This document shows positions 8,895-32,627 of a stretch of 64,000 nucleotides of DNA, in pieces; the stretch's first letter is position 1; each line of letters starts with the position of its first letter. Source of the DNA: an uncultured Clostridia bacterium. Its GTDB lineage: Bacteria; Bacillota; Clostridia; TANB77; CAG-508. The stretch is from assembly GCA_944393565.1 (NCBI GenBank), contig CALYAM010000001.1:58204-122203 (forward strand). The letters are read 5' to 3'. The notes beneath the pieces are model-generated. The model saw only the letters and a list, made by a program, of their open reading frames with translations, searched no databases and was not told the origin of the DNA. The position numbers were made by a program, and so were the translations under genes.

Positions 8895-9260
8895 ATGAAG
8901 GAATTAAAAAAAGTAGTAGTAACATTATTAATTGCATTATTAATAATAGGAGTATCAAGTATTGCTTTAGCTACTGATGATGGAAATGTAACGATTATAG
9001 AAGATGAAGCAGCAAACAATTCAACAGGCAACATAAATAGTGCAGCAAATAATACAAATAGAAATAATATTTTAAATACAAATACTAATACAAACAGAAA
9101 TACAACAAATACAAACAGTTCAAATAGTAGCAAATATAATAATACTGATTTACCAAAGGCAGGAAGCACAGATAGCATGACAATAGTTTTTGTAATTGCC
9201 ATATTTGGAATATCTGCTCTTTATGCTTACAAAAAAATAAAGGATTATAATTTAAAATAG
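8895..9260 (+). CDS. Small surface protein with a sortase-type sorting signal. It has a signal peptide, an Asn/Thr-rich low-complexity region, the motif LPKAG, a TM helix and a KKIK tail.
   Basis: C-terminus DLPKAGSTDSMTIVFVIAIFGISALYAYKKIKDYNLK has the tripartite cell-wall sorting architecture with Ala in place of Thr at position 4. Confidence 0.5.
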   Translation: MKELKKVVVTLLIALLIIGVSSIALATDDGNVTIIEDEAANNSTGNINSAANNTNRNNILNTNTNTNRNTTNTNSSNSSKYNNTDLPKAGSTDSMTIVFVIAIFGISALYAYKKIKDYNLK

Positions 9261-9322: not shown

Positions 9323-9959
9323 CTAAGATGTCTTATTAATTTCTATGGCCTTTATAATAATTCTATTGCCATTAAAGTTATTGCATGTAACTAAAGTGAT
9401 TTCTTTCATTCCGTTAGTTTCTTGATTTGTACAACTTATATCTTTTTGATCTATTTCATATTTCTTATAAATTTCATATTCAATTATATTATTGTAATTA
9501 TCTGTAAAAAAAATTTTATCGCCAATGCAAAGCTTTGGAATATTACTAAAAAATTCTCCATTATTATAATTATGCCCGAGCAATACACATGTTTCCTGCC
9601 TCATTTGGAAATGGACCATAAAATTTGCAGATGGAAACCTTTAAAAGATTCTCATTTATGGTTGAATAAACAGGTTGTACAAGAGAAATTGATGGTATTT
9701 CTAAAGTGCCTATTACAAATGGAGACAATTTCTTATCCTCAATATTTATGGTGTTTGAAAGACTATACAACTTTTCTAATGAATATGATTGCATAATTGC
9801 ATTAGATATTTTATTTCTTTTTTCGTTATTGTATGCCAAATAAGGTAAATAAAAAAGTGATGAAAAAATAACTAATAAAGATATAACAAGCAAAATATGA
9901 AAGAAATTCTTACTGTTTTTTTTTGGTATAGCTAAAATTTGGTTCATATAATCCTCCAT
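9323..9959 (-). pseudogene. Sortase gene interrupted by a frameshift near 9600. The N-terminal TM plus beta-barrel start lies in one frame; the GHNY...TLVTC catalytic part lies in another.
   Basis: The N-terminal ORF (9570-9959) aligns to the sortase at 35155 (IGTLEIPSISL / GEIEIPKINI). The C-terminal ORF (9323-9619) carries LLGHNYNNGEFFSNIPKL and the catalytic Cys motif TLVTC. The two overlap in different frames around EAGN. Confidence 0.55.
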
Positions 9960-16917: not shown

Positions 16918-17718
16918 TTGTTTAATAGGGGGGGATGTAGTTTGAATAAAAAAATAATTATGGTAATTGTAATTATGGTTATAGCTTTGCTTTTAACTTT
17001 AATTATTGCAATGACACAAATAGAAGATGACATAGTAATAGGAAAACCTGGAAACTCATATTTTAGAGGAATAGTAACTGAAGTATATGAAAGTAGTTTT
17101 TTAGTTCGTGTTAGTGAGTGGCATCCAATGGCAAAAGGAGGAAGTGTTGTTAGTGTTGGCTCAAAATTACTAGATGATGAAAAAGTAAATAAAGGAGATT
17201 ATGTAGAAGTTGTTTTTGATGGTGGTGTTATGGAAAGCTGGCCACTGCAAGTTAATGAGCTAGATATTAAAATTTTAAAATCAGATAAAATAGCAAGTAT
17301 GTATGAAACAATGCTTGATGAAATCTGGAAAGAAGATGAAGCATTAAATTCAGATGCTGAATTTATTTGCATTGATTTTGAAAATTTTAAAAAAATAGAT
17401 AACAAAAATAATAGTGAATTTACAAGTATAGAAGATGGGACAAAACAAAATATTTTGACATATGCTAAAAAATATCATGAAATTGTTATAGCCAACAGTA
17501 TGGAAGAACTAAAAGAAAAAGGATTGTTTAACGAAGAGACAATGAGTTTAAAAGGAGTTTTAATTTATATTGATGAGATTGAAGAAATTTCAGAGAATAA
17601 GGCAATTATTTCAATGGTAAAATACAGAAGTGGATTGGGCGCAATATTTTCTAAATATGAATTGACATTTAAAGATGAAAAATGGGAAATAAAAACTTTA
17701 TCTATGGCAATATCCTAA
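16918..17718 (+). CDS. Membrane-anchored hypothetical protein, about 260 aa, with an N-terminal TM helix
   Basis: ORF with an N-terminal hydrophobic helix and no recognised domain. Confidence 0.4.
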   Translation: MFNRGGCSLNKKIIMVIVIMVIALLLTLIIAMTQIEDDIVIGKPGNSYFRGIVTEVYESSFLVRVSEWHPMAKGGSVVSVGSKLLDDEKVNKGDYVEVVFDGGVMESWPLQVNELDIKILKSDKIASMYETMLDEIWKEDEALNSDAEFICIDFENFKKIDNKNNSEFTSIEDGTKQNILTYAKKYHEIVIANSMEELKEKGLFNEETMSLKGVLIYIDEIEEISENKAIISMVKYRSGLGAIFSKYELTFKDEKWEIKTLSMAIS

Positions 17719-17798: not shown

Positions 17799-20180
17799 AT
17801 GAAAAAAATTCATGTTTTTTTGCTAATTTTATTTGGAATCATCCTATTTGGCAATATATCACACGCGGCAAGTAGTACAGAATACATTGATTCAGAAGTG
17901 TATGAAATTTCACAATTGGGCGAAGAAAAAATTGCAACAGGTTTAGATCAAAAGAATATGACGGCACAAACAATATTGGATAATTTCACATTGTTTCATA
18001 GTACACTTAGTAAGAAGGCTTATGATTTAGATGATAATGCTGTGGAAAGCACAGAAAAACTTGGCACAGGTTCAAAAATAAAGGCTGTTTTTTCTTATAG
18101 CAGTACTTTTGATTACCCATATGATAGCGTAACTTTAGTACTTTATGGTGATACAAATGGAGATGGAGATATTACTTCAGCAGACGCATTAGCTGTTATT
18201 AAAAATAAAACAGGAAAAGTAAAATTCCAAGATTCGTGTTTTGAAGAAGCAGGAAGGATAACAGAGAACACACGAAAAAATGCATCTATTCCTTCTTCAG
18301 CAGATGCACTAGCTATTATAAAATATAGATTAGGTAAGAACCAAATAACACAAACATATAAAAGAACAATAATAGTATCAAATTATCAAGACTTATATAT
18401 GCAACTTGAACAGGCAAATGAAAATATAAAGTTCGATTCTAGCACTGAAGGAAAACAAATAGAGGCAAGCTATAATCAACTAAAAAATGTTGTTAACACG
18501 TATTGTAAAAGCGATATGTCACAAATTACAAAAGCATTGATATTACATGATTATTTAGTAGCTGGTAGTAAAGTAGATAGAACTTCTGGTAAATATACTG
18601 AAGATTCAGCAGAGAGCAACATACAAAACGTAAATAAAACAATGAATGATTTAGGATTTGCAAATACATATACATCACTTCTTGGAATTGCTGGAATTGA
18701 GTCAAGAGTTATAAAGGGAAGGTCAGGAGCAACTACTATTAATATAATGAATGAAGTAACAATAGATGGACAAATGTATTATGTATCATGTGGAGCAGAT
18801 AGATACATTTCAGATAGGGAAGGTAAAAATGAAGTAAGAAGATATTTCTTTATGAGAAATACAGACGGGTTAAAAGAGCCTTTTTCGGCAAATTCAATGT
18901 TATTTATGTTAGAGCCACAAAGTAATAGAACTTCTACTTCTACAAAATATGAAGGTGTAATTTGGCCAGAATATAGGAAGGAATTGAATTACAAAGACTC
19001 TGAAATAAAATTAGCTAATGGCAAAGTTATAGTAGAAACGCTTTCAGAATTAAAAGAAGCATTACTTTCAGGTAAAAGTTATGCTATAAATGTAGTGGAT
19101 GGTTATTCACAAGAACTATATGAAATAGATGAACGTTGCAAAAAAATACTGGCAAAATATATTAAACCAGGAATGACAATAGAAGAGAAACTACTAACAA
19201 TACATGATTACATATGTTCAAATTTTATAAGAACAGATCATGAGGCAATTCTAGAGAGAGAAAAATCAGATGCTGAATATGATTGCGCATGGGGCCTATA
19301 CAAAAATACAATATTATCTAATATGGGAGACTGCTGGTCAATTACTGATTATTTTAATACTCTATGTGCATATATTGGACTAGAAACAAAATCAGTATCA
19401 GAGCATCAAGTGCCAAATCCATTTGGGTTAGGAAACCATATGTGGAGCCTTGTAAAATTAGATGGAAATTGGTACCACGTAGACTGCGAAGGAGGAGACT
19501 TTTATGCATATGGAAAAGTTGAGAGAAGATGGTTCTTATACAGTGATGATGCTATGCAAATAGAAGAAAATACATATGAACCATGTACTTCTACTAAATA
19601 TGATAACTATGATTGGCCTGAATTTAAAGGAGTAGCATATTATCAAGATGTAACAGGAATAATAGATGAAGATGTTCCAGCAACAAGTATATGGATAGAT
19701 GAGAGAACGGAGACCGTTGTTGGGGATTCATATAATATTATGACAAGAGTATTTCCATATGGCTCTACAAGCAAAGTAACATATACTTCAAGTAATCCTG
19801 CGATAGCAACGATCGATGCAAATGGCAATATGGAGATAAAAGGCAAGGGGCAAGCTACAATAACAGCAAGAACCTCAAATGGAATTACAAGATCATATAC
19901 TTTAACATCTCACTATGTTCCAGACAGAATATTGCTAGATGATTTGACTTTGTCAGTAGGAGAAACTAAACAGGCAATATATAATGTTATACCAGAGGGT
20001 GCTGAATTTGAATCTGAAGGCTGGAGAATAGTAAATGAAGATATTGCAACGATAGATGAAAAAACTGGAAAAGTTACTGGCAAAAGAGCAGGAACTACAT
20101 ATATGTATTTTGATTATAAATACAGAACAGAAGGAACTATTACTAGTACGTCAACATATGCAAGAGTTATAGTAAAATAA
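17799..20180 (+). CDS. Secreted protein with an N-proximal type-I dockerin, a tandem degenerate plus active transglutaminase-like cysteine-protease core, and a C-terminal Big_2 Ig-like domain
   Basis: Signal peptide. Dockerin repeat YGDTNGDGDITSADALAVIKNK with a second segment SSADALAIIKYRLGK. Transglutaminase-like Cys-His-Asp core GDCWSITDYF...GNHMWSLVKLDGNWYHVDCEG. Big_2-like VTYTSSNPAIATIDANGNMEIKGKGQATITA. Confidence 0.6.
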   Translation: MKKIHVFLLILFGIILFGNISHAASSTEYIDSEVYEISQLGEEKIATGLDQKNMTAQTILDNFTLFHSTLSKKAYDLDDNAVESTEKLGTGSKIKAVFSYSSTFDYPYDSVTLVLYGDTNGDGDITSADALAVIKNKTGKVKFQDSCFEEAGRITENTRKNASIPSSADALAIIKYRLGKNQITQTYKRTIIVSNYQDLYMQLEQANENIKFDSSTEGKQIEASYNQLKNVVNTYCKSDMSQITKALILHDYLVAGSKVDRTSGKYTEDSAESNIQNVNKTMNDLGFANTYTSLLGIAGIESRVIKGRSGATTINIMNEVTIDGQMYYVSCGADRYISDREGKNEVRRYFFMRNTDGLKEPFSANSMLFMLEPQSNRTSTSTKYEGVIWPEYRKELNYKDSEIKLANGKVIVETLSELKEALLSGKSYAINVVDGYSQELYEIDERCKKILAKYIKPGMTIEEKLLTIHDYICSNFIRTDHEAILEREKSDAEYDCAWGLYKNTILSNMGDCWSITDYFNTLCAYIGLETKSVSEHQVPNPFGLGNHMWSLVKLDGNWYHVDCEGGDFYAYGKVERRWFLYSDDAMQIEENTYEPCTSTKYDNYDWPEFKGVAYYQDVTGIIDEDVPATSIWIDERTETVVGDSYNIMTRVFPYGSTSKVTYTSSNPAIATIDANGNMEIKGKGQATITARTSNGITRSYTLTSHYVPDRILLDDLTLSVGETKQAIYNVIPEGAEFESEGWRIVNEDIATIDEKTGKVTGKRAGTTYMYFDYKYRTEGTITSTSTYARVIVK

Positions 20181-20194
20181 GAATAATTTATTTT

Positions 20195-20232
20195 AAAAAG
20201 TGAAGTGAATTAAGTTTAACTTCACTTTTTTT
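20195..20232 (+). terminator. Rho-independent terminator (aaaagtgaag/cttcactttt stem followed by a T-run)
   Basis: 10-bp perfect stem followed by ttttttt. Confidence 0.7.
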
Positions 20233-20367
20233 ATGCAAAAAAGTAACGATATAAAGAATGATGATATCTTAAAAAGATTTTTGTTGTTTTTACATATTTT
20301 TAATGTTATAATATACAAAAATTTATAAATTTGAAACCTTTAATTTTAGGAAGGAATACTGTTTTAG

Positions 20368-21042
20368 ATGAACGAAAAAATAAGAAAAGAAATAATTACT
20401 GTTTTTTGGATATTTGTAATTGGAAGTATTTTTGGATGTATAGCAGAGACGGTATATGGCTTTTTAAAAAATGGAGAGTTCTACATAAAAAAAGGTTTGA
20501 TTTATGGACCTTTTATACCAGTTTATGGTATTGGAGCAGTTATGTATTATTTTGTAGTTACAAAGGTTAAACATCCTGTAAATATATTTTTGTGCAGCAT
20601 GGTACTTGGAGGAGTTGCTGAATATATTTGTTCATATGCACAAGAAATATTTTTTGGAACAATTTCATGGGATTATAGTAATCTAGTGTTTAATTTAAAC
20701 GGTAGGACTAGTTTGATACATTGTATTTTGTGGGGGCTTGCTGGGATTTTTTATAGAATAATTGCATACCCATTTATTAAAAAATGGGTAAACAATTATA
20801 AAAAGGCAGAGTTTAAAGTATTTACATTTATAGTTGTATTGTTTATGACTGCTAATATAATTATTTCTTGCGCAGCAGGGAGTAGACAAAATGAAAGAGT
20901 AAAACAAATTCCAGCAACTAGTGAGCTAGACAAATTACTAGACAGATATTATCCTGATTCTGTAATGGACAAAATTTATGCTAATAAAATTGTGACTGTA
21001 AAAAGAAAAGAACCAATTTTGAAGCTTAACATAGAAAGGTGA
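20368..21042 (+). CDS. Polytopic membrane protein of unknown function, 224 aa
   Basis: About 5 TM helices. Contains a GPFIPVYGIG motif. No confident family assignment. Confidence 0.4.
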   Translation: MNEKIRKEIITVFWIFVIGSIFGCIAETVYGFLKNGEFYIKKGLIYGPFIPVYGIGAVMYYFVVTKVKHPVNIFLCSMVLGGVAEYICSYAQEIFFGTISWDYSNLVFNLNGRTSLIHCILWGLAGIFYRIIAYPFIKKWVNNYKKAEFKVFTFIVVLFMTANIIISCAAGSRQNERVKQIPATSELDKLLDRYYPDSVMDKIYANKIVTVKRKEPILKLNIER

Positions 21043-21160
21043 AAAATAATCTTATTTAATTTACTTTTTTAAACTTTATTATTGACGAACATTTTTTTAT
21101 CATATATAGTATAATCGATAATATGTTACAAAATACGTACCAAATAAAGGAGGAGATTTT

Positions 21161-22891
21161 GTGAAAAAACGCGAAATTTTCATAAAATTATTAAGTTCGA
21201 TTATTTTGATAATAATAGCATACACATATATATTACCAAGCATTTCACTAGGTGCTGATATAAAACAGGAGCTTAAAACAGGAATTGATAATTTCCCAGA
21301 TAGCTATCAAGAAAAATTAAAAAAATTGAAAGAATTACACCCTAACTGGAACTTTCAAGCATATTATACAGGAATTGACTGGAACGAATTGATTAAAAAT
21401 GAAACTGGTGAAGTATTACACAAAAGAAGTGTTGTTCCTTCAGATTCACCAGACTTATGGAAATGCAATATGTGTGAAGATGATAAAGGATGGACATGCG
21501 CTTCAAAAGAAATTGTAGAATATTTTATTGATCCAAGGAATTTTTTAAATGAAGTTAATATTTTTCAATTTGAAGAACTTTCATTTAACAAAGATATACA
21601 TACATCAGAAGGAGTGCAAATTGCGGTTAAAAATACATTTCTCGATAATTCTATTACATACTATGATGAGGAAAAAAAACAAAACGTGACAAGAACATAT
21701 ACTGACATAATAATGGAAGTTGCTCAAAAAACTAATATAAGCCCATTCCATATTAAATCAAAAATTATTCAGGAAGTAGGGGCACAGGGAAGTCCATCTG
21801 TTTCAGGGACATATCCGGGTTATGAAAACTACTACAACTTTTTTAATTATGGTTCACATGATACAGGAGATCCAATTGTAAATGGTTTAAGCTTTGCAAA
21901 AGAAAAAGGTTGGAATAATCCATATAAAGCAATATTAGGAGGAGCAGAGCTAATAGGAACAACATATGTAAATCAGGGGCAGAATACATCTTATTTTTTT
22001 AAATATGACGTTGTTGGAGATAAAATACTGAAAGTTAATGAAACTAGTACTATAAGTGATTCATCACTTTACGCACATCAATATATGACAAATATAATGG
22101 ATCCTTATAGTCAAAGTTCATCTGTTTATAATGCTTATGTTAAAAATGGAAATATTGATGCTACCTTAAATTTTATTATCCCAGTATATGAAAATATGGA
22201 GGAATGTTATAAAAAACCAACAAAATATACTATAAAAGATGGAGAACTGTATTATGCAGATATAATAAAAGAAACAGGAGCAAGGGATGATGTGAAATTT
22301 GATAGTCCAGTTGTGTATTCAATACAAAAAGATGAAATAGTAATTATGATAAATAGAAAATGCGTATTCTCAGATGGAATATATTGGGACTTAGTTATGT
22401 TAGAAAATGGTTGGAATGTATATGTAGAAAGTAGCGACATGAAGCCATACAGAAGTGATGAAATGGAAAAACAAGATGAAACAGTTATTATAGATGAAGA
22501 AAGAAATACAATTACAGTAACACCACCAGTAGAGATGAAAAAAGTTATAGACGAACTTAAAATATCAAATTATAGTATAATAGATTCATCTGGAAAGGAA
22601 GTTGCAGGAGATAATAAAAAAGTTTGTACTGGCTATAAATTAAATATTTTAAAAGAAGATAATAAAACATTAGAAAAAGAATATACATTAATAAAAGTAG
22701 GAGATGTAAATGGAGATGGTAATCTACTGGCTACTGATTCTTTGGCAATATTAAAACATAGTATTGATGAAAGAAAGTTAGAAGAAGTATACTTAGAGGC
22801 TGCGGATGTTAGAAAAGATGGAAAAATAAATTCTGTAGATGCTTTACTTGTTTTAAAATATAGTCTAGGGAAAGTAAGTATTAATATTTAA
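21161..22891 (+). CDS. Putative peptidoglycan hydrolase (glucosaminidase-like domain) with a C-terminal type-I dockerin
   Basis: GTG start with an AGGAGG RBS and an N-terminal TM/signal segment. C-terminal duplicated Ca-loop repeats GDVNGDGNLLATDSLAILKHSI and DVRKDGKINSVDALLVLKYSLGK. The central region is weakly GH73-like (…ISPFHIKSKIIQEVGAQGS); the catalytic assignment is tentative. Confidence 0.5.
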   Translation: MKKREIFIKLLSSIILIIIAYTYILPSISLGADIKQELKTGIDNFPDSYQEKLKKLKELHPNWNFQAYYTGIDWNELIKNETGEVLHKRSVVPSDSPDLWKCNMCEDDKGWTCASKEIVEYFIDPRNFLNEVNIFQFEELSFNKDIHTSEGVQIAVKNTFLDNSITYYDEEKKQNVTRTYTDIIMEVAQKTNISPFHIKSKIIQEVGAQGSPSVSGTYPGYENYYNFFNYGSHDTGDPIVNGLSFAKEKGWNNPYKAILGGAELIGTTYVNQGQNTSYFFKYDVVGDKILKVNETSTISDSSLYAHQYMTNIMDPYSQSSSVYNAYVKNGNIDATLNFIIPVYENMEECYKKPTKYTIKDGELYYADIIKETGARDDVKFDSPVVYSIQKDEIVIMINRKCVFSDGIYWDLVMLENGWNVYVESSDMKPYRSDEMEKQDETVIIDEERNTITVTPPVEMKKVIDELKISNYSIIDSSGKEVAGDNKKVCTGYKLNILKEDNKTLEKEYTLIKVGDVNGDGNLLATDSLAILKHSIDERKLEEVYLEAADVRKDGKINSVDALLVLKYSLGKVSINI

Positions 22892-22940
22892 GTAACATTA
22901 TATTCATCTAAATTGTATAAATAATAAAGAGGGAGGAAAA

Positions 22941-24182
22941 ATGTCTAATTTTAATAAAGTATCAATATTAATTATAATTTTTTTGTTTGCACTGTGCAGT
23001 ACAAATATTGTACAGGCAATGACGATAGTATTGGATCCAGGGCATGGTGGACAAGATCCAGGAACTGTTAATGGAAGTATATATGAAAAAGATATAAATT
23101 TAAAGATTGCAAAATATTTAAAAGAATACTTAGAAGAATATGAAGGTGTTGAAGTAATCCTTACACACAATGGTTTAAGTAGTGGGGAATTAACAATATT
23201 TGAAAGAGCGATAATTGCAAGAAACAAAAAAGCTGATTTATTGGTAAGTATACATATTAATAGTTCAGAAACTTCAGAAGGGGAAGGCGCAGAAGTATAT
23301 GTAAGTGCAAATACTTCACTAGAAAAATATAATAAGGAAACAACAGAACTTGCAAATAAAATATTAGAAAATTTATCTGCTATAGGAATTGCTAATAGGG
23401 GAGTTTTAACTAAATTAATTCCAACAGATACAACAGATGTCTATTCAGATGGAACAAGAGCAGACTATATGGGAATTATTAGATATGCAATGAGGGGAAC
23501 TATGATAGATGATGGAGTAGTTACTATATTGCAAAACGGAGAAAAAGTAGAAGTACCTGAAAGTACATCTGCAAATGTCCAAAATGGAGAGGGAATACCT
23601 ACAATTTTAGTAGAACATTGCTTTATAAAAGGAAATGATTATAAATATATTGATTCAGATGAAGATATTAAAAAATTAGCAAAAGCAGACTTAGATGCAA
23701 TAGTTAAACAATATGATTTAAAACTAAAAACAGATGAAAAAGAGCCAACAACTCCAACAGATCCAACAAAACCAGATGAAATAAGACAAACAGATATAGA
23801 AATAAATGAGAAAGATAAAATAATTAGAATAACACCTTCAATAACAGTAGAAAATTTAGAAGAGAGACTAGAGACAACTGAATATTTTATTATTGACTCA
23901 GAAGGAAAAATATTAGATAAGGAAAAAGAAATCTTAGCTACAGGTTATAAATTGAAAGTTGGAGATAATACATATACAATAATAAAAATGGGTGACGTTA
24001 CAGGAGATGGAAAAGCAATTGCGGTTGATGGACTTGCAATATTAAAGCATAAACTTAAAAAAATAGAACTGGAAGGAATATATTTAAAAGCAGCAGATAC
24101 AACAAATGACGGTGCAATAACATCCGCGGATGCATTAGCTGTGATAAAAGATAGCGTATCTAAATTAATGATCCACTTATAA
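22941..24182 (+). CDS. N-acetylmuramoyl-L-alanine amidase (Amidase_3 family) with a C-terminal type-I dockerin
   Basis: Signal peptide. Amidase_3 motif LDPGHGGQDPGTV with EVILTH…SIHINS. C-terminal GDVTGDGKAIAVDGLAILKHKL and DTTNDGAITSADALAVIKDSV. Confidence 0.7.
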   Translation: MSNFNKVSILIIIFLFALCSTNIVQAMTIVLDPGHGGQDPGTVNGSIYEKDINLKIAKYLKEYLEEYEGVEVILTHNGLSSGELTIFERAIIARNKKADLLVSIHINSSETSEGEGAEVYVSANTSLEKYNKETTELANKILENLSAIGIANRGVLTKLIPTDTTDVYSDGTRADYMGIIRYAMRGTMIDDGVVTILQNGEKVEVPESTSANVQNGEGIPTILVEHCFIKGNDYKYIDSDEDIKKLAKADLDAIVKQYDLKLKTDEKEPTTPTDPTKPDEIRQTDIEINEKDKIIRITPSITVENLEERLETTEYFIIDSEGKILDKEKEILATGYKLKVGDNTYTIIKMGDVTGDGKAIAVDGLAILKHKLKKIELEGIYLKAADTTNDGAITSADALAVIKDSVSKLMIHL

Positions 24183-24205
24183 ATACAAGTTTAATGGAGG
24201 TAAAT

Positions 24206-25639
24206 ATGAGAAAACATAATAGAGTAATATTATTCTTTTTGTTTGTTGCTTTAATTTTTCTTGGAACGACTAATTCATTTGGAGCATATAGTGCAGAAAG
24301 CAAAACTGTAAATTCTGGAGAGAGTTTTAGCGTAACTGTAACATCAAGCGATGCTTTAGAAGCATATAATTTAGATTTATCAGGTTACGAGGGGTTAACA
24401 TTTAATGGATGCTTAATTCCAGAAGGAGGAACACTATCAGATAAAAATGATAATGGAAGTATAGCTTATATTAATGTTTCGGGAACTACCAATACACTTG
24501 GAACTTACCAATTTAGTGCTCCAGAAGTCACAGAAGATACTACATATATAATTCAGTTTTTGGTAGATAAAGAAACACCTGTTACATCAAATATTACAGT
24601 AAAAGCAAACAGCGCTCCAACTGAAGAACCAATAGAAGAACCAATAGAAGAATCCACAGAAGAACCCACAGAAGAACCCACAGAAGAACCAACACAGGAA
24701 CAAAACCCTGATGTGCCAGAGACACCAGCAAAATCTAGCAATACCAATTTAAGAAATTTAGGAATAAGACCAAATGACTTTACAGGATTTAAACCATGGA
24801 TTACATCCTATACTGTAACAAATGTACCAAATGATGTTACTACAATTGAAGTATATGCGTATAAGAGTGAAGATGGTCAAACAATTTCTGGAACAGGGAA
24901 AAAATCATTAGATGAAGGAACAAACCGCTTTCCTGTCACTGTAACTGCTGAAGATGGAACGCAAAAAACGTATACAATTACGGTAATTAGATTAGCAAGT
25001 GAAGAGATAAATAATCCAGATGTAGAACAGGCACCAGAAGTTAAACCAGGATTAACTAGCTTATCTATTGATGGTATTACTTTAAATGAACCATTTAGTC
25101 CTGACAAACAAGAGTATACAGCTGTTTTAGAGAAAGATATTGAAAGTACGACAGTAAATGCAGTAGCTAATATAGAAGGTGCAGTTATTGAAATAGAAGG
25201 AGAAGATAATTTAAGCGGAGAAAATAGTATAATAACAGTAAAAGTAAAAAATACTGATGGAAGTGAAGAAAAAACATATACAATAAACATAACAAAAAAG
25301 ATACAAGAACCTCAAGAAAATGAAAATGAAAACAATATTGCAACCATTGTAGGAAGTTCTAATAACTCATCTGGAAAAGGAAAAATAGGAATGGAAAAAA
25401 TTTTGTTCTGCCTAGGAATTGCAATAATTGCTGCTTTAGGAGTTATATTTACAATAATTAAATATAAAAGAGATAATGGAGACTATGAAGAAATTAATAC
25501 AATAGATTATGTTGGAAATGTCAATCCGATAGAAGCAATTAAAGATGCAAGTAGTGCTACATCTAGGCTTTCTGAGGTAAATGAAGAGACTATTAAAGAA
25601 ACAGCTGGAATACCAAGAAAAAAAGGACGTCATTTTTAA
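24206..25639 (+). CDS. Membrane-anchored surface scaffold. It has a signal peptide, a putative cohesin-like beta-sandwich, an EEP(I/T) acidic linker, two cadherin-like beta-sandwich domains, a TM helix and a 70-aa cytoplasmic tail.
   Basis: The N-terminal module SFSVTVTSSDALEAYNLDLSGYEGLTF resembles cohesin strands. Repeats LTSLSIDGITLNEPFSPDKQEYTAV and NLRNLGIRPNDFTGFKPWITSYTV match the cadherin-like (LSxLxxxxGxLxPxF) pattern. TM ILFCLGIAIIAALGVIFTII. The cohesin call is inferential. Confidence 0.5.
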   Translation: MRKHNRVILFFLFVALIFLGTTNSFGAYSAESKTVNSGESFSVTVTSSDALEAYNLDLSGYEGLTFNGCLIPEGGTLSDKNDNGSIAYINVSGTTNTLGTYQFSAPEVTEDTTYIIQFLVDKETPVTSNITVKANSAPTEEPIEEPIEESTEEPTEEPTEEPTQEQNPDVPETPAKSSNTNLRNLGIRPNDFTGFKPWITSYTVTNVPNDVTTIEVYAYKSEDGQTISGTGKKSLDEGTNRFPVTVTAEDGTQKTYTITVIRLASEEINNPDVEQAPEVKPGLTSLSIDGITLNEPFSPDKQEYTAVLEKDIESTTVNAVANIEGAVIEIEGEDNLSGENSIITVKVKNTDGSEEKTYTINITKKIQEPQENENENNIATIVGSSNNSSGKGKIGMEKILFCLGIAIIAALGVIFTIIKYKRDNGDYEEINTIDYVGNVNPIEAIKDASSATSRLSEVNEETIKETAGIPRKKGRHF

Positions 25640-25680
25640 AAAATATATAGATAATATTGAAAAAACAAAAAAAACGATAT

Positions 25681-25706
25681 ATACTAGTATGTGTTCATAC
25701 TAGTAT
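25681..25706. repeat. Two copies of the self-palindromic decamer ATACTAGTAT separated by gtgttc
   Basis: atactagtat-gtgttc-atactagtat read directly from the sequence; located between a gene end and tRNA-Thr. Confidence 0.8.
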
Positions 25707-25710
25707 ATAT

Positions 25711-25786
<76 letters not shown>

Positions 25787-25812
25787 AACAAATAAAATAA
25801 AGGGGAAAATAT

Positions 25813-28203
25813 ATGAAGAAAGTAAAACTTTTTTATCTGGTTTTTATTATTACATTATTTCTAGTTCTTATATGCTTTATACCAAACCAAGTTTTTGCAA
25901 CTACCAACTATTTTAAAACATCAACTTATAAAATTACAGAGGCGAAAAATAAAGTATTATCAAACTTAGATGCAAGTAATGTAAGTGTTCAAAATGTACT
26001 TGCAAATGTGTCGATTAATTTTAATACAGACATGTATGAAATAAGAGCCTATAACAATGGTGCGGAATTAGCATTAGATAAATTAATCGGAACTGGAAGC
26101 ATGCTAAAAGTAATGCACAAAAACTATAATTACTCTGTTGATTCAATAACGATTATTTTATATGGAGATACAAATGGAGATGGAAGCATTTCAGCAACAG
26201 ATGCACTTGCGATAATAAAAAATAAAACAGGTAAAATAAAATTTGAAAATGAATATTTTTTAGAAGCAGGCAGAATTACAACTCTAACTAGACAAAAAAA
26301 CGATGTGCCATCGTCAGTTGATGCTTTGGCTATAATAAAAAACAAACTGGGAAAATTAAATATTAGTCAATTTAGAAATATACAAGTAAAAGTTTCATCA
26401 TATGATGATTTGTACACTCAACTTAAACAATGTAATACAAATATAGAATTTGACAAAACGGCAGATAACTATAATGAAATGATATCGAGCTATGAAAAAC
26501 TACAAAGGATTGTAAAAAAATATTGTACAAATGAAATGTCTCAAACTGTAAAAGCTCTCGTTTTACATGACTATTTGGCGGCTGGAAGTATTTTAAATAA
26601 TGACACAACATACTGTGATAATTCAAGCAAGGAAAGTCATATTTGCAATATAGATGGAACAATGAATCAACTCGGATTTGCAAATACATATACATGCCTT
26701 TTAGGAATTGCAGGGATACCTTCTGAAATAAAACGAGATAAATACGCAAATTACGCCAATAATGCAATAAATGAAGTAATAATAGATGGACAAATGTATT
26801 ATGTTTCATGCGGAGTTGATAGTTATCTTTCTAAGGTTGAAGGAAAGGGCAAACTAAGAAGATATTACTTTTTAAGGAATACTGAGCAATTAAAAGAAAC
26901 TTTTTGGGAAGGTGATATTTACTTTGGCTATACACCATCAACTAACAATACATCAACATCTACAAAATATTATGGAGTAAGATGGCCAGAATACAGATCA
27001 ACTTTAGATTACAAAAATAATGAAATTAAATTAGCAACAGGGAAAACGATAGTTCGAAGCATGAGTGAACTTAAAGATGCAGTTATTAATAAAAAGGATT
27101 ATATTATAGATGTGATAGATGCAAATACAGAATCATTGGCAGAAGTAGACCAATTTAGTAAAAAAGTAATAGAAAAATATATAACAAAAGATATGAGCGA
27201 AGCTGAAAAGGCACTTGCAATATATGATTTTGTATGTTCTAATTTTATGAGAAATGATCATATAGCATATAGGGAAAGAACTAATGTGTCAAATTCAGAT
27301 TATGATGTTGCATGGGGCTCGTATAAGACATCCCTATTATCTGGGATGGGTGATTGCATAGGAGCGACGAATTCTTTTAATACTTTATGTGCATATGCAG
27401 GACTAGAAACTAAAACAATAAATGAACATCAGGTAGATGCTATACATGGTATGGGCAATCATCATTGGAGCTTGGTAAAAATAGATAACCAATGGTATCA
27501 CTGCGACTGTGAAGGAAGCGATTATTATACATATGGACAAGTAGACAGAACATGGTTTTTGTATAGTGATAGAGCAATGGGAGCAACAAATAATACTGTT
27601 GAAGCATGTACTTCTACTAAATATGATGACTATGATTGGCCTGAATTTAAGGGAATAGCATATTATCAAGATAAAACAGACATTATAGATGAAAAAGTTC
27701 CAGCTACAAGTTTTTGGACATCAGAAAGAACAGAAGCAATTGTTGGGGATGAATTTGCAATAATGACAAGGATATTCCCATATGGTTCTACTGATAAACC
27801 TACATATAGTTCAAGTAACCCTAAAGTAGCAACAATAGATAATGAAGGAAATATTAGTGTATTATCAATAGGAACAACCACAATAAAAATAGATGTAAAT
27901 GGAATTTCAAAAACATTTACAATAAAAACAGGTTCAAGACCTAAAGATATAATTGCTAAAGATATGACTTTGAAAGTCGGGCAAACAAGCAAGATTAATT
28001 ATGAAGTAAATCCAAGTGATGCTCTATATACAAAAATTTATTGGTACAGTTCTAATGAAAACATTGTAACAGTGGACGAAGATGGAAATGTTACAGCTGT
28101 AGGAGAGGGAACTGCAAATATAAGATTAAGCTATACATATAGAATGGGAAACTCAACGTATTATTCTTCTGGTAAATCTGCTAAGATAACAGTAACTAAA
28201 TAA
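25813..28203 (+). CDS. Paralog of the 17799 protein: N-proximal dockerin, transglutaminase-like cysteine-protease core and a C-terminal Big_2 domain
   Basis: Dockerin repeat YGDTNGDGSISATDALAIIKNK with SSVDALAIIKNKLGK. Transglutaminase-like core GDCIGATNSFNTLC...GNHHWSLVKIDNQWYHCDCEG. Big_2 PTYSSSNPKVATIDNEGNISV. Long stretches are near-identical to 17799-20180 at the DNA level. Confidence 0.6.
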   Translation: MKKVKLFYLVFIITLFLVLICFIPNQVFATTNYFKTSTYKITEAKNKVLSNLDASNVSVQNVLANVSINFNTDMYEIRAYNNGAELALDKLIGTGSMLKVMHKNYNYSVDSITIILYGDTNGDGSISATDALAIIKNKTGKIKFENEYFLEAGRITTLTRQKNDVPSSVDALAIIKNKLGKLNISQFRNIQVKVSSYDDLYTQLKQCNTNIEFDKTADNYNEMISSYEKLQRIVKKYCTNEMSQTVKALVLHDYLAAGSILNNDTTYCDNSSKESHICNIDGTMNQLGFANTYTCLLGIAGIPSEIKRDKYANYANNAINEVIIDGQMYYVSCGVDSYLSKVEGKGKLRRYYFLRNTEQLKETFWEGDIYFGYTPSTNNTSTSTKYYGVRWPEYRSTLDYKNNEIKLATGKTIVRSMSELKDAVINKKDYIIDVIDANTESLAEVDQFSKKVIEKYITKDMSEAEKALAIYDFVCSNFMRNDHIAYRERTNVSNSDYDVAWGSYKTSLLSGMGDCIGATNSFNTLCAYAGLETKTINEHQVDAIHGMGNHHWSLVKIDNQWYHCDCEGSDYYTYGQVDRTWFLYSDRAMGATNNTVEACTSTKYDDYDWPEFKGIAYYQDKTDIIDEKVPATSFWTSERTEAIVGDEFAIMTRIFPYGSTDKPTYSSSNPKVATIDNEGNISVLSIGTTTIKIDVNGISKTFTIKTGSRPKDIIAKDMTLKVGQTSKINYEVNPSDALYTKIYWYSSNENIVTVDEDGNVTAVGEGTANIRLSYTYRMGNSTYYSSGKSAKITVTK

Positions 28204-28463: not shown

Positions 28464-30129
28464 TTGTCATACATTATGTTTATTGTTCCATTCTGGTATG
28501 GATTGTTTTACGAATATGCAGCATTTGCTACAGGAATTGTTTTTTTAATATTACTTTGTAAAACAATAATGCAAAATAAAAAAATAATTATAAAAAGTGG
28601 CAAAAATTTTTATATTTATTCTATATTGATATTTTCTTATTTGGCAACTACAATTTGGGCTATTGATAAAGAAATGGCAATAGAGGGTTTTTTGAAGTTT
28701 TTACCGGGAATTTTTTATTTTATATTGCTAATGCAGTTCGAAAAAGAAGAAAAACAAAAAATATTAAACATGATACCAATAAGTGGTGTTACGATGGTTT
28801 TAATATCTTATGTTTTAGGACAAATACCAATACTTAAAGCTCAATTTTTTTCAGACAATGGTAGATTAGTAGGTTTTTTCCAATATTCTAATAGCTTTGC
28901 ATTATTTTTATTAATAAGTATTGTTATAATAGCAAACAAGAAACAAAAATATTTAAAAGACAAAATAGCACTGTGCATTCTCACACTTGGAATTTTAACA
29001 ACAGGTAGTAGATTTACATTTATCCTTACAGTACTATTTGGAATTTACCAGATAATAAAAAATAGACAAAGCAAGAAAAAAATACTAATTGGTATATTCC
29101 TAGCAATAGTAACACTAATTGTATCCGCAATTTTACTTGAAATTACAGGTAATATTGATATATTTGAAAGACTATTCAAAATATCATTCGAAGAGAGCTC
29201 TGTAATAGGAAGAATAATATATTATTTAGATGGATTAAAAATAATATTAAAAAATCCATTTGGATTACGGTTACATGGGATATAGTTATTACTACCCAGA
29301 AATCCAAACAGCAGACTATGCTATAAAATTTGTACATAATGATTTTATACAACAAGCTATAGATGCAGGCATTATTTCGATGCTTATGCTAATATATTTA
29401 TTTGTAAGTAATATATTTTCTAAAAAAAGCACTAGCTATAAGAGAGAAATATTAATTATTATGCTATTACACATGCTATTAGAATTTGATATGCAATTTA
29501 TAGTAATTCACTTAATATTTGTTATGTTATTGGCAGATAAAGAAGAAAAAGCTTACTTCTTTAGTATAAAACAGGCAAAACTAACAATTGTATTACTAGT
29601 CATAATTCAAACAAGCATTTTTATGTATTTTGGTATAGGTTCTATTTTGGATAAATATGGAAACTACCAAACTGCTTTAGCCTTGATTCCAAACAAAACA
29701 AATCCAAAGATACAAAAATTAAAAAATATGGATAATTTAGCAGAAGCCTATGAAGTTGCAAATGAATTACTGAGAGATAACAAATATATTCTGACAGCAT
29801 ATAAAGCAAAAGCCAATTATGCATATTATACAGAGAATTGGGAACAAATGATAGAAAATCAAAAAAAAGTAATTAGTCTGGATAAATATAATATAGAAAA
29901 TTATGAAGAATACATTTTCATGATTAGCAATGGATTAGATAAAACAATAAAACAAAATCAAACTGAAAAAACGAAATATTTAACAAAAGAGGCCTTAGAA
30001 GTTCGTAATCTTTTAGAAAATGTAAAAAAAGCTACAAGTCCATTAGCTTATAAAATAATAGACAAGCCAGAATTGGAATTAAATGATGCAACTAAGAAAT
30101 ATTTGAATGTGTTAGAAAACTACGATTAA
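28464..30129 (+). pseudogene. Wzy_C / O-antigen-ligase-like polytopic membrane protein with a C-terminal TPR-like soluble domain, split by a frameshift near 29265
   Basis: The N-terminal ORF (8 or more TM helices) ends ...NPFGLRLHGI*. The second ORF begins in another frame, with a 26-nt overlap, right at the conserved HNDFIQQAIDAGII loop motif of Wzy_C/O-antigen ligases. Confidence 0.5.
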
Positions 30130-30146: not shown

Positions 30147-32613
30147 ATGTTAAAAAACATTAAAATTATAATTGGTTTAATTCTTGTTATGCAAGTTGTA
30201 TTTACAGGAGTAATACCTGTTATAAGTAATGCAACAACGCAAAGCCTCATAACAGATGAAACTCTTTTAGCAACGATACATGATTATAATGGAGATAAAA
30301 TTATATCACAAAATGAACTAGACAAAGTAAGTTACCTCCAAATTTGGGAAGGAACGAAGGACCTAAGTGGTCTAGAAAATGCAAAAAACTTACGTAAAAT
30401 TTACTATGAATATGATGGCACGGCACTTGACTTTAGCAATATTAACCTAGATAAAGTAACTGATGTAATTATTTCAATATCAGATAATAATAAATTTGAT
30501 ATTGAGTTTTTAGACAAATTTCCAAGATTAAGAAAACTTGAAATAATATCAGATTATATTAGTAATGTAGATTTATCTAAACTTGCCAATTTCCAAAACA
30601 TAAAAAATCTTGAAATAAGAATTAATGATATTACTAATTTAAACGGAATAAACCAGTTAAAAAATCTAGAAGAACTATCAATAATAGCAAAGAGTAATGT
30701 AGACATAACTGAAATTGAAAAATTAAGTAAATTGGAAAAAGTATCATTTGATAATGTAAGACTTCAAAATGCAGAAGCTCTTGGGAAACTAATTAATTTA
30801 AAGGAAATTAGATTTTTCTCATGTACAGGAATATCTTCACCAAGTTATTTAAAGAATAATACAAATCTATGCAATTTAGACTTTTCACATTCTGATATAA
30901 CAGATATCTCTTTTGCAAAAGGCTTAAAAGAACTTGAAGAAATAGATTTAACTTCTACAAATGTAACAACAATAGAAGTATTAAAAGATTTGCCTAAATT
31001 GACTAGAGCAACTGTATTTGACTCTAAAGTTACAGAGGATCAAAGAGTTAATTTAATGGAATTTGAAGATTATACAGCATATGTTGGAGAAAGAAAAAAT
31101 ATAACTCCTATATTAGATGGAGTTATAGATAGGGAAAATTGGAATTATACATCCTCTGATGAAGATGTTGCCACAGTAAGTGAAGATGGAGCAGTACAAA
31201 CACTTAAAGTTGGAGAAGCTACAATAACAATGACAAATAAATTAACAAGTGATGTAAAAACAATGAAAATTACAGTAAAAGGAATTGAAAGTAATCCAGC
31301 TATAGGTGTTATGACAAATGCAATTCAGATAAGTGATAATTTAGTATTAAAGGAAAATGGAGAACTGTGGAAAATACATATAGATGAAGGAAAATCTGAA
31401 AGAGTAGATACTAATGTTGATAAATGTATAAGTGAATTTATATATAACGCAGATAGTTACCCTGTTCCATATACATTAAAATTAAAAGCTAATGGTACTG
31501 GTGTGCTTGAATTTAATGGAGTAACAAGTAAAATAGAAAATGTAAAAGATATCTGCAGGAAAGGCTACTTAAGTACAGATGGAATCTATTATGAACTTTT
31601 ATTTGACGGCACATGGTTAGAAGTAACAGACAACGTTAAAAAAATAGTTGACTGGTATTTAGTTAAAAACGACGGAAAGACATATGACACTTATGGACAG
31701 TTAGCGTGCAATTTTGAAATAATTGCAGCATCAGGAACTACTGTTGTAGATGAAAATAAAACTGTTTGGAAAAAGAGCTCAAGCACAGTAACTTCTTACA
31801 AATGGGAAAAAATTGGAGAAAACTTTAAACGCTATACAGACGGAACAGAAAATTCATATTCCACTTCATACGAAACAAATGATGGAAAGATTATGAATGT
31901 ATTTGGTAATGAAGTTCAGTACCAAAAAGAAGTATACTGTGAATCAAATAAATTAAGGCTTGATAAAAACAAAAATGCATTATTAAATGATACAATTATT
32001 TTAGATGCTGTAACTTCTATGTATGTAATAGATTCAAATAATATTGTATTTATAAGAAACGATGGAAGTGCATGGGTTTTGCAATTAGAAGGAAAGGCTA
32101 AATTAGAAAAAATAGAAGAACAAACCGGGAAAGTATTTTTCACAAGTGATAAGCTAAAAACAAAAGTAATAGCTTTAGATGAACATGAAGGTGATATAGT
32201 TATAGGAGAAGCACTAATTCGGATTTGATATAAACAATCTAGAAATATCAAATATTATACAGGAATTTAAAGAAGACTATACAGTAAAAGTATATTCTAA
32301 TGGCAAAGAATTACCAGATGATGATAATTTGGCAACAGGAGATGTAATTAGATTATATAATGATGACAATAAGCCTATAAAAGAATATATCGCATTAGTG
32401 TATGGAGATGTAACAAGTTCTGGAAATCCAGGCGCAAAAGATGCTCTAGCTATAGTAAAGAATAGAACAGGCAAAGTTGTAATAGAAAATGCATTAAACT
32501 TAGAAGCTGCAAGAGTAACAGAAATCACAAGAAAAACAGTAGGAGAACCTACATCTTCAGATTCACTCGCAATTATAAAATCAAAGCTTGGAAAATATAC
32601 AATTAATTTATAA
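30147..32613 (+). pseudogene. Secreted LRR (internalin-like) protein with a Big_2 domain, a beta-rich region and a C-terminal dockerin, interrupted by a frameshift at about 32213
   Basis: A 693-aa ORF ends ...GEALIRI*. In another frame an ORF with no start codon continues FGFDINNLEI...VYGDVTSSGNPGAKDALAIVKNRTGK...SSDSLAIIKSKLGK (dockerin). The whole is collinear with the intact paralog at 32628-35054. Confidence 0.55.
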
Positions 32614-32627
32614 GGAGGAAGTATAAA

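Follow-up and report, generated by a model that had tools for sequence, protein, structure and literature searches.

Closest Described Systems

Transglutaminase-like proteins bearing a dockerin have a precedent in Ruminococcus flavefaciens FD-1, which encodes 10 of them, four in tandem beside a leucine-rich repeat (LRR)-dockerin protein (PMC2930009). Papain-like modules in tandem are also met in RflaF_05439, whose NlpC/P60 modules are joined to an XDoc that binds the sortase-anchored ScaE cohesin (PMC3573020). Furthermore, several transglutaminase-fold enzymes, PeiW/PeiP, WbmE and TgpA among them, have cell-wall roles (PMC3507681, PMC10318531). The two genes described here, TG-A and TG-B, lie in a 64,000-nucleotide stretch of DNA (the window) from an uncultured Clostridia bacterium (GenBank assembly GCA_944393565.1, contig CALYAM010000001.1, positions 58,204 to 122,203 of the forward strand; coordinates below are those of the window). 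Their products combine a dockerin with a transglutaminase-like core predicted to consist of one catalytically dead and one live module, and most likely belong to a narrow family, as yet uncharacterised, of enzymes that uncultured low-GC human-gut Clostridia secrete to their cell surface. The features of the two genes are as follows (aa, amino acid positions).

17799–20180, + strand: TG-A gene, an open reading frame (ORF) of 793 aa, with domains from Pfam and an AlphaFold2 model
aa 1–23: signal peptide of TG-A
aa 28–113: beta domain of TG-A
18138–18338, + strand (aa 114–180): predicted atypical dockerin of TG-A, a helical region (Pfam, BLASTP, substitution rates)
18366–18998, + strand (aa 190–400): N module of TG-A, alpha/beta, transglutaminase-like and predicted to be dead, with Leu285/Asn315/Ser330 at the triad positions
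19026–19658, + strand (aa 410–620): C module of TG-A, alpha/beta, the predicted live transglutaminase-like core
19332–19334, 19437–19439 and 19482–19484, + strand: catalytic codons of TG-A (Cys512, His547 and Asp562)
19680–20177, + strand (aa 628–706 and 710–793): two Big_2 domains of TG-A, immunoglobulin (Ig)-like beta-sandwiches (Pfam)
25813–28203, + strand: TG-B gene, an ORF of 796 aa with the architecture of TG-A
aa 1–29: signal peptide of TG-B
26155–26355 (aa 115–181): dockerin of TG-B
aa 191–402 and aa 412–623: predicted dead and live modules of TG-B
aa 631–708 and 712–796: two Big_2 domains of TG-B
27355–27357, 27460–27462 and 27505–27507, + strand: catalytic codons of TG-B (Cys515, His550 and Asp565)

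The R. flavefaciens proteins ORF01263-01266 (dockerin group 4b; PMC2930009), whose function is itself predicted, resemble TG-A and TG-B in having a signal peptide, a transglutaminase-like domain and a dockerin, and they too are head-to-tail paralogues with an LRR protein in the cluster. However, their dockerin is C-terminal and cellulosomal, whereas that of TG-A and TG-B is N-proximal, half degenerate and found in non-cellulolytic surroundings, among peptidoglycan hydrolases. In the published description, on which this comparison is based, neither a dead module nor Big_2 domains are reported for them. P0114, a relative from the databases that carries a transglutaminase core followed by a C-terminal dockerin like the R. 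flavefaciens ORFs, is only a remote match.

In the same way, RflaF_05439 shares with TG-A and TG-B duplicated papain-like Cys-His modules in tandem, one repeat lacking the catalytic Cys in strain 17, as well as a module-plus-dockerin unit that docks, or in TG-A and TG-B would dock, on a single-cohesin, sortase-anchored wall protein and a proposed role as cell-wall peptidase. Nevertheless, its modules belong to NlpC/P60 and not to Transglut_core, its dockerin lies at the opposite end of the protein, and its cohesin partner was tested experimentally, whereas that of TG-A and TG-B is a prediction. PeiW/PeiP (MEROPS C71) have the transglutaminase fold and a Cys-His-Asp triad, and they cleave an isopeptide bond of the cell wall (PMC4592898, PMC10318531). 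They differ in being phage-encoded archaeal lysins with pseudomurein-binding repeats, and TG-A and TG-B do not match their family, PF12386. They offer a mechanistic analogy only, for the idea of an envelope peptidase.

A Predicted Pseudo-Enzyme in Tandem with a Live Module

The first-pass annotation, made from the letters alone, had described two genes of common architecture, whose Cys-His-Asp transglutaminase-like core is preceded by a related segment lacking the catalytic Cys and followed by a C-terminal Big_2 domain. Both ORFs are found on the plus strand, precisely where they had been placed (793 and 796 aa), and their products are collinear end to end (BLASTP E = 0, 50% identity, 67% positives). 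A hidden Markov model search gives Transglut_core (PF01841) 46.9 bits in TG-A (residues 453–563, E = 3.8e-12) and 45.1 bits in TG-B (residues 454–566, E = 1.3e-11), against a Pfam cut-off of 23. The quoted core motif, GDCWS...GNHMWSLVKLDGNWYHVD, is found with Cys512/His547/Asp562 in TG-A and Cys515/His550/Asp565 in TG-B. The presence of Big_2 also holds, but not the number, since two stretches in each protein match PF02368 (scores of 56.4 and 70.5 bits for a cut-off of 22.8; E = 3e-15 in TG-A). In TG-A, this region finds intimin, LigA and Big_2-CBM56 in the PDB, by sequence as well as by fold. The domain annotation can be considered well supported. All domains are under purifying selection, with ratios of non-synonymous to synonymous substitution rates (dN/dS) of 0.06–0.29.

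The relation of the upstream segment to the live module is clear from BLASTP (E = 9e-12 to 2e-15 between N and C modules) and from profile-profile comparison (98.7% probability, E = 2.6e-16, 150 columns), the latter match including the trailing TSTKY..WPE[YF] motif. All three triad positions of the N module are substituted (Leu285/Asn315/Ser330 in TG-A, Leu287/Asn317/Ser332 in TG-B), and none of the family members has a Cys-His-Asp triad there. Cys512, His547 and Asp562 of the C module are invariant (15/15 aligned family members). In the AlphaFold2 model of TG-A, built on a 15-sequence alignment (mean predicted local distance difference test score 82.7), Cys512 is the first residue of helix 512–525, His547 directly precedes strand 548–554 and Asp562 directly follows strand 557–561. 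This modelled arrangement fits the canonical transglutaminase/papain topology and speaks, indirectly, for a juxtaposition of the three residues.

The dead module is not decaying: many of its residues are unchanged (GFANTY..LLGIAGI..IDG..YYVSCG is invariant or almost so) and its dN/dS is low (0.07–0.12 among orthologues of TG-A, versus 0.15–0.16 for the live module). As judged from these comparisons, the N module is a conserved pseudo-enzyme, homologous to the live module but catalytically dead.

When the full-length model was compared with the PDB by Foldseek, Ig-like domains dominated the match list; the 440-aa core was therefore modelled separately and searched anew. The best fold matches of the core, with their scores, were the following.

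Streptococcus pyogenes TglA (9crn): 15.7, with 201 residues aligned
Streptococcus suis TGase (4xz7): 10.3
BDI_1141 putative protease (3kd4): 9.1
LapG: 8.2
Cytophaga putative cysteine protease (3isr): 7.4
PeiW catalytic domain: 7.3

TG3, TG2, factor XIII, arylamine N-acetyltransferases, TgpA, PNGase and vasohibins rank lower, and a Foldseek search of the core agrees. At the sequence level, the family profile of the core retrieves no PDB relative at E<=1, and a search with the single sequence matched Big_2 only. S. pyogenes TglA and S. suis TGase differ from the core, with 13% sequence identity and no sequence-level match by the family profile. Neither protein is known to contain a dockerin or Big_2 domain, and a literature search for the S. 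pyogenes TglA of 9crn returned only unrelated proteins called TglA. TG-A and TG-B match neither the profile of PF12386 (pseudomurein endoisopeptidase C71, PeiW/PeiP) nor that of PF06035 (BTLCP/LapG C93). The MAG6410 family of transglutaminase-related lipoproteins (NF045980) is not matched either: its curated cut-off is 450 bits, of which TG-A reaches 61.6, and TG-B gives no match.

An Atypical Dockerin near the N-Terminus

As had been noticed from the sequence, the dockerin of TG-A and TG-B is N-proximal (at residues 116–180 and 117–181), whereas that of the neighbouring hydrolases is C-terminal (residues 514–567 of 576 and 351–403 of 413). Its Dockerin_1 (PF00404) scores, 24.1 bits in TG-A and 26.6 bits in TG-B, exceed the cut-off of 22.9 by a small margin, and the Pfam match spans the first repeat alone (profile positions 1–21/22 of 57). 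In TG-A, the first Ca2+ loop is canonical (DTNGDGDITSAD) and accompanied by its helix. The second loop is degenerate (GRITENTRKNASIPSSAD), having lost the acidic Asp/Asn ligands and being 5–6 residues longer; its helix is retained (ADALAIIKYRLGK). A pair of canonical DxNxDGxxxxxD loop-helix segments is not present, as the second loop deviates. The dockerin region of about 72 aa is nevertheless 39–47% identical to the dockerins of both neighbours (BLASTP E = 2e-15 for the glucosaminidase, 8e-14 for the amidase), and its dN/dS of 0.07 places it among the most constrained regions of the protein. This region is therefore predicted to be an atypical dockerin.

Outside the family, a dockerin-type Ca2+ loop motif was found in 7 of 148 distant transglutaminase-like representatives, and it is C-terminal in all seven. 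The N-proximal position of the dockerin thus appears to be peculiar to the TG-A/TG-B family.

Distribution of the Family

Among 1.84 billion representatives clustered at 50% identity, the profile of the two-module core retrieves a single full-length one and a few fragments. Beyond these, the scores fall to E = 1e-28 and weaker, and the matches are generic Transglut_core proteins (3,437 at E<1e-3). A word-indexed search gave about 16 clusters, none of them named. Some distant relatives also associate dead and live modules, either two dead and one live (P0056, P0057) or one of each (P0058, P0059, P0093), which suggests that the theme of a pseudo-enzyme in tandem is not unique to TG-A and TG-B. 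From these searches, the family itself looks very narrow; it belongs to a recognisable type, the dockerin-tagged transglutaminase-fold surface protein, already known in R. flavefaciens.

Age of the Duplication

Long near-identical DNA stretches had also been ascribed to the two genes, and from these a recent duplication and a potential site of recombination or variation had been proposed. Near-identity, recent duplication and recombination do not stand. Global nucleotide identity is 62–63%, the blastn high-scoring pair reaches 68% over 1.7 kb and the longest exact match is 24 nucleotides (nt). With 50% protein identity, TG-A and TG-B fall, in a neighbour-joining tree of 14 family members, into two deep clades that each hold several species. 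To judge by these comparisons, they are anciently diverged paralogues resulting from an old duplication.

A recent tandem duplication that creates a hot spot of recombination or variation would be in keeping with the shared architecture and strand of genes 5.6 kb apart, with exact runs of 22–24 nt and with one 90-nt segment that is 90% identical between the copies. However, the peptide encoded there, CTSTKYD.YDWPEFKG.AYYQD, is the one best conserved in the family, and the segment is also 78–83% identical between TG-B and controls, which are orthologues of TG-A from genomes devoid of copy B (L001 and L003). Over the whole gene, DNA identity to TG-B is 0.617 for TG-A of the window, 0.620 for the orthologue of L001 and 0.622 for that of L003. 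Since TG-A is no closer to TG-B than are orthologues that have no copy B beside them, there is no signal of gene conversion; furthermore, each copy clusters with orthologues from other species. Recent duplication and gene conversion were rejected on blastn, exact-match runs, global alignment and the control by genomes lacking copy B, and a hot spot of this kind appears very improbable.

Genomic Neighbourhood and Candidate Cohesin Receptors

The window is AT-rich (GC 25–33%), and its housekeeping genes (for pyruvate kinase, glycogen phosphorylase, YchF and several tRNAs) show it to be chromosomal. Among public sequences, those nearest to it belong to metagenome-assembled genomes from the human gut, Clostridia bacterium HGM13623 and uncultured Clostridium sp. 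UMGS1754. A phage origin was considered and rejected: tblastn against 50,697 phage records matched the Big_2 region alone, with at most 31% identity. A promoter and terminator scan gave counts that do not exceed shuffled expectation in such AT-rich DNA. The genes and features around TG-A and TG-B are listed below.

21161–22891, + strand: SagB-like glucosaminidase-related protein with a canonical C-terminal dockerin (576 aa; Dockerin_1 4e-11; NCBIfam SagB 1.9e-17, sub-threshold)
22941–24182, + strand: N-acetylmuramoyl-L-alanine amidase (Amidase_3) with a canonical C-terminal dockerin (413 aa; Amidase_3 2.7e-35; Dockerin_1 1.3e-7)
24194–25639, + strand: membrane-anchored protein with a signal peptide, a candidate cohesin-like N-terminal domain, a Pro/Glu/Thr linker, two cadherin-like domains and a C-terminal transmembrane helix
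25711–25786, + strand: tRNA-Thr(CGT) (ARAGORN), 27 nt upstream of TG-B, at the edge of the TG-B presence/absence polymorphism
28464–30129: Wzy_C-like (O-antigen ligase/polymerase-like) gene, as overlapping ORFs 28464–29285 and 29260–30129
30147–35054: two LRR proteins of 693 and 808 aa between the Wzy-like gene and the sortase gene, the first also with Big_2; syntenic in related loci
35155–35805, + strand: sortase gene (Pfam Sortase 1.6e-23), syntenic in L005, L007 and L010
35830–36627, + strand: probable dockerin receptor (265 aa) with a signal peptide, a single cohesin, an (NTAGNT)n linker, IPQAG, a transmembrane helix and a KTRKK tail

Four proteins encoded within 10 kb share the dockerin type: TG-A, the SagB-like glucosaminidase-related protein, the Amidase_3 protein and TG-B. 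The presence of dockerins on peptidoglycan hydrolases (21161–24182) falls outside the usual role of dockerin enzymes, the degradation of carbohydrates. The Wzy_C-like gene is also split in L003, L004 and L010, and is a single ORF of 478–548 aa in L005 and L007. The two LRR proteins have neither a dockerin motif nor a sorting signal.

The gene order TG gene, Wzy-like gene, LRR genes, sortase gene and cohesin gene is found at four loci, those of the window, L005, L007 and L010, which represent three or four genomes. In the last three loci, the TG proteins are down to 43–67% identical to TG-A or TG-B. In a contig related to the window and in two more distant genomes, the gene immediately before the Wzy-like gene is of the B clade or is its homologue P0010. 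The sortase-cohesin pair accompanies the TG gene at all loci whose flanks are long enough.

The globular domain of the protein encoded at 35830–36627 is probably a cohesin, because its L005 orthologue matches Pfam Cohesin (26.4 bits against a cut-off of 24.1), because most of its database homologues have precomputed PF00963 matches and because of its family profile (A3), which retrieves the cohesin of Clostridium perfringens NagJ (2jh2/2ozn) with E = 5e-6 and, more weakly, cellulosomal cohesins (E = 0.008–0.4). This protein is a probable dockerin receptor. The NagJ cohesin, its closest relative by sequence profile, belongs to the cohesin-dockerin pairs of C. perfringens, which are likewise non-cellulosomal and assemble non-cellulolytic secreted enzymes; it is, however, carried by a secreted glycoside hydrolase, whereas the cohesin of the window is on a small stand-alone sortase substrate. 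The protein of 24194–25639, whose cadherin-like part is recognised by Pfam (Cadherin-like, 2e-20), could be a second, candidate receptor: its N-terminal domain bears a weak likeness to the same cohesin profile A3 (hhalign, 86.5%, E = 4.6e-6), and taken alone this domain has no Pfam or PDB cohesin match.

The linker of the 35830–36627 protein repeats NTAGNT/NENTAG, and its IPQAG is a non-canonical sorting motif. Far upstream, on the minus strand (8895–9260), a 121-aa protein with a signal peptide, an Asn/Thr-rich low-complexity region, LPKAG, a transmembrane helix and a basic tail resembles a small sortase substrate. It lies beside an apparent sortase (9323–9959, minus strand; TLVTC motif) that is split over two reading frames. 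Taken together, IPQAG and LPKAG suggest that the sortase motif of this organism is [LI]P[KQ]AG.

Presence or Absence of Copy B and Decay of a Family Member

Variation at this locus, which the first-pass annotation had anticipated, does exist, as copy B is present or absent according to the species and one lineage is frameshifted, but it does not proceed through recombination between the copies. L001 and L003/L004, whose orthologues of TG-A are 83–86% identical, have the A cluster, and there the Wzy-like gene follows tRNA-Thr(CGT) directly, without TG-B. The more distant L005 and L007 hold a single copy at the locus, in the B position. A perfect palindrome with a 15-bp stem (25677–25710) immediately precedes the tRNA gene in the window. 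L003 has the same palindrome and tRNA (the latter at 17040–17115), after which come a GC-rich hairpin and then the Wzy-like gene, without TG-B.

The possibility that TG-B is a mobile island integrated at tRNA-Thr, suggested by the tRNA at its edge, was set aside: the indel corresponds to a single gene precisely, and the interval from the tRNA to the Wzy-like gene contains no integrase-like ORF. As, in addition, the B-type genes of distant genomes are placed in the same way with respect to the Wzy-like gene, the loss of copy B by sister species is no less probable than its gain.

In L012 (345–2736), a family member is frameshifted within the linker that joins the dead module to the live one, close to AACCGGAGAAAG and away from any homopolymer, which leaves two ORFs of 453 and 336 aa. 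This frameshift is probably real and not an assembly error, since the same break is seen in three clusters at 90% identity (P0014-16). These 453-aa homologues of the N-terminal half had been considered as a natural protein made of a dockerin and a dead module, and are actually the 5' part of a frameshifted full-length gene. Differences in copy number and integrity between species are due to gene gain, loss or decay.

Possible Functions

The reading that we favour, with moderate confidence, is that TG-A and TG-B are wall-tethered, dockerin-bearing transglutaminase-fold enzymes, with peptide or isopeptide bonds of the envelope as tentative substrates. According to their signal peptides, both proteins would be exported by the Sec pathway. 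The unit formed by the beta domain and the dockerin would then tether them, all four dockerin proteins presumably docking on the single-cohesin protein encoded 8 kb downstream at 35830–36627, which the neighbouring sortase would link covalently to the wall through IPQAG; the cohesin-like domain of the 24194 protein might offer a second docking site. In the C module, the triad would form a thioester acyl-enzyme at Cys512, which would subsequently be resolved, either by water, resulting in peptidase, isopeptidase or amidase activity, or by an amine, resulting in transamidation. Peptide or isopeptide bonds of the envelope, in peptidoglycan stem peptides or in surface proteins, are tentatively favoured as substrates because of the analogy with PeiW/PeiP and because the same tag is carried by wall enzymes that cleave glycan and amide bonds, whose activities an envelope peptidase would complement. 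The dead module would most likely be a partner for substrate binding or scaffolding, and the two Big_2 domains may act as spacers or binding modules.

Several observations weigh against this reading. As the second Ca2+ loop lacks its acidic ligands and contains an insertion, binding to a cohesin is not guaranteed, and the 35830–36627 protein itself has no match to Pfam Cohesin (PF00963) at E<=10. None of the homologues bears a functional name, and since the core profile has no sequence relative in the PDB, substrate specificity is not transferable from characterised enzymes. Furthermore, the peptidoglycan-hydrolase neighbours are found only with the A-type cluster, the core conserved across genomes consisting of the TG, Wzy-like, LRR, sortase and cohesin genes; the idea of an envelope peptidase thus relies on a lineage-specific association. 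The universally conserved neighbour of the TG genes is the Wzy-like gene.

This last gene brings to mind an amidase or deamidase that modifies glycopolymers, working together with the Wzy-like protein on a surface polysaccharide or glycan. Bordetella WbmE, which PMC3507681 presents as a transglutaminase-fold enzyme deamidating uronamide-rich O chains, would be the precedent, and in the window as in L005, L007 and L010 it is a TG gene that directly precedes the Wzy_C-like one. Nevertheless, gene adjacency is the sole link between the two, no glycan-binding module was detected and WbmE is missing among the structural matches listed, so that such a role has a slim probability. TG-A and TG-B could also be true cross-linking transglutaminases, which would transamidate Gln and Lys residues of surface or host proteins and thereby, for example, build or harden a surface layer or evade host defence, for which the S. 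suis TGase is reportedly an example. Their Cys-His-Asp chemistry is compatible with transamidation, Pseudomonas aeruginosa TgpA has transglutaminase activity in vitro (PMC3507681), and the Big_2 domains and LRR neighbours suggest a setting of adhesion or host interaction. However, no sequence-level relation links them to any characterised TGase, and the partners that carry the same dockerin are hydrolases. According to the Transglut_core literature consulted (PMC10318531, PMC3507681), the bacterial and archaeal members were initially grouped as a papain-like superfamily, and those characterised in a cell-wall context either hydrolyse or, in one case, deamidate. Cross-linking is considered rather unlikely, although clearly less so than the deamidation of glycopolymers.

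The tether itself may be questioned: the dockerin could be vestigial, or bind Ca2+ in a purely structural role, and the proteins would then be secreted enzymes or adhesins that are free or held by Big_2. The Pfam match to the first repeat alone (24–27 bits against 22.9), the second loop devoid of Ca2+ ligands and the internal, N-proximal placement, when the dockerin-like motifs of distant transglutaminase-like relatives are C-terminal in 7/7 cases, all point in this direction. They have to be set against the strong constraint on this region (dN/dS 0.07), the 39–47% identity that it shares, across some 72 aa, with the genuine dockerins of the adjacent proteins and the company of the sortase-cohesin pair wherever the flanks are long enough. 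Furthermore, N-terminal dockerins exist elsewhere, as in SIGN-Doc-SERPIN of R. flavefaciens (PMC2930009). Loss of the docking function is thus improbable, only marginally less so than a partnership with the Wzy-like protein.

Returning to wall-tethered envelope enzymes, a broader and more speculative proposal, which we hold to be unlikely as it stands, extends to the whole cluster from 17.8 to 36.6 kb. It would encode a non-cellulosomal, wall-anchored complex for envelope remodelling, in which the sortase-attached cohesin, perhaps together with the membrane-anchored cohesin-like protein, would use one dockerin type to bring together wall-active enzymes of three classes that complement one another. 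These would be a glucosaminidase, a MurNAc-L-Ala amidase and peptidases or isopeptidases of the transglutaminase fold, the live module of the latter being guided to its substrate by its dead twin.

Significance

If docking holds, a connector known from cellulosomes displays cell-wall hydrolases and transglutaminase-fold enzymes on the surface of this lineage of uncultured human-gut Clostridia, and this would widen the known non-cellulosomal uses of the cohesin-dockerin pair. Should the envelope-remodelling complex be real, cohesin-dockerin scaffolding would serve the turnover of the cell's own wall, or an attack on the walls of its neighbours, and not the degradation of polysaccharides. Finally, the family would give a clean case of a conserved pseudo-enzyme module beside its active twin.

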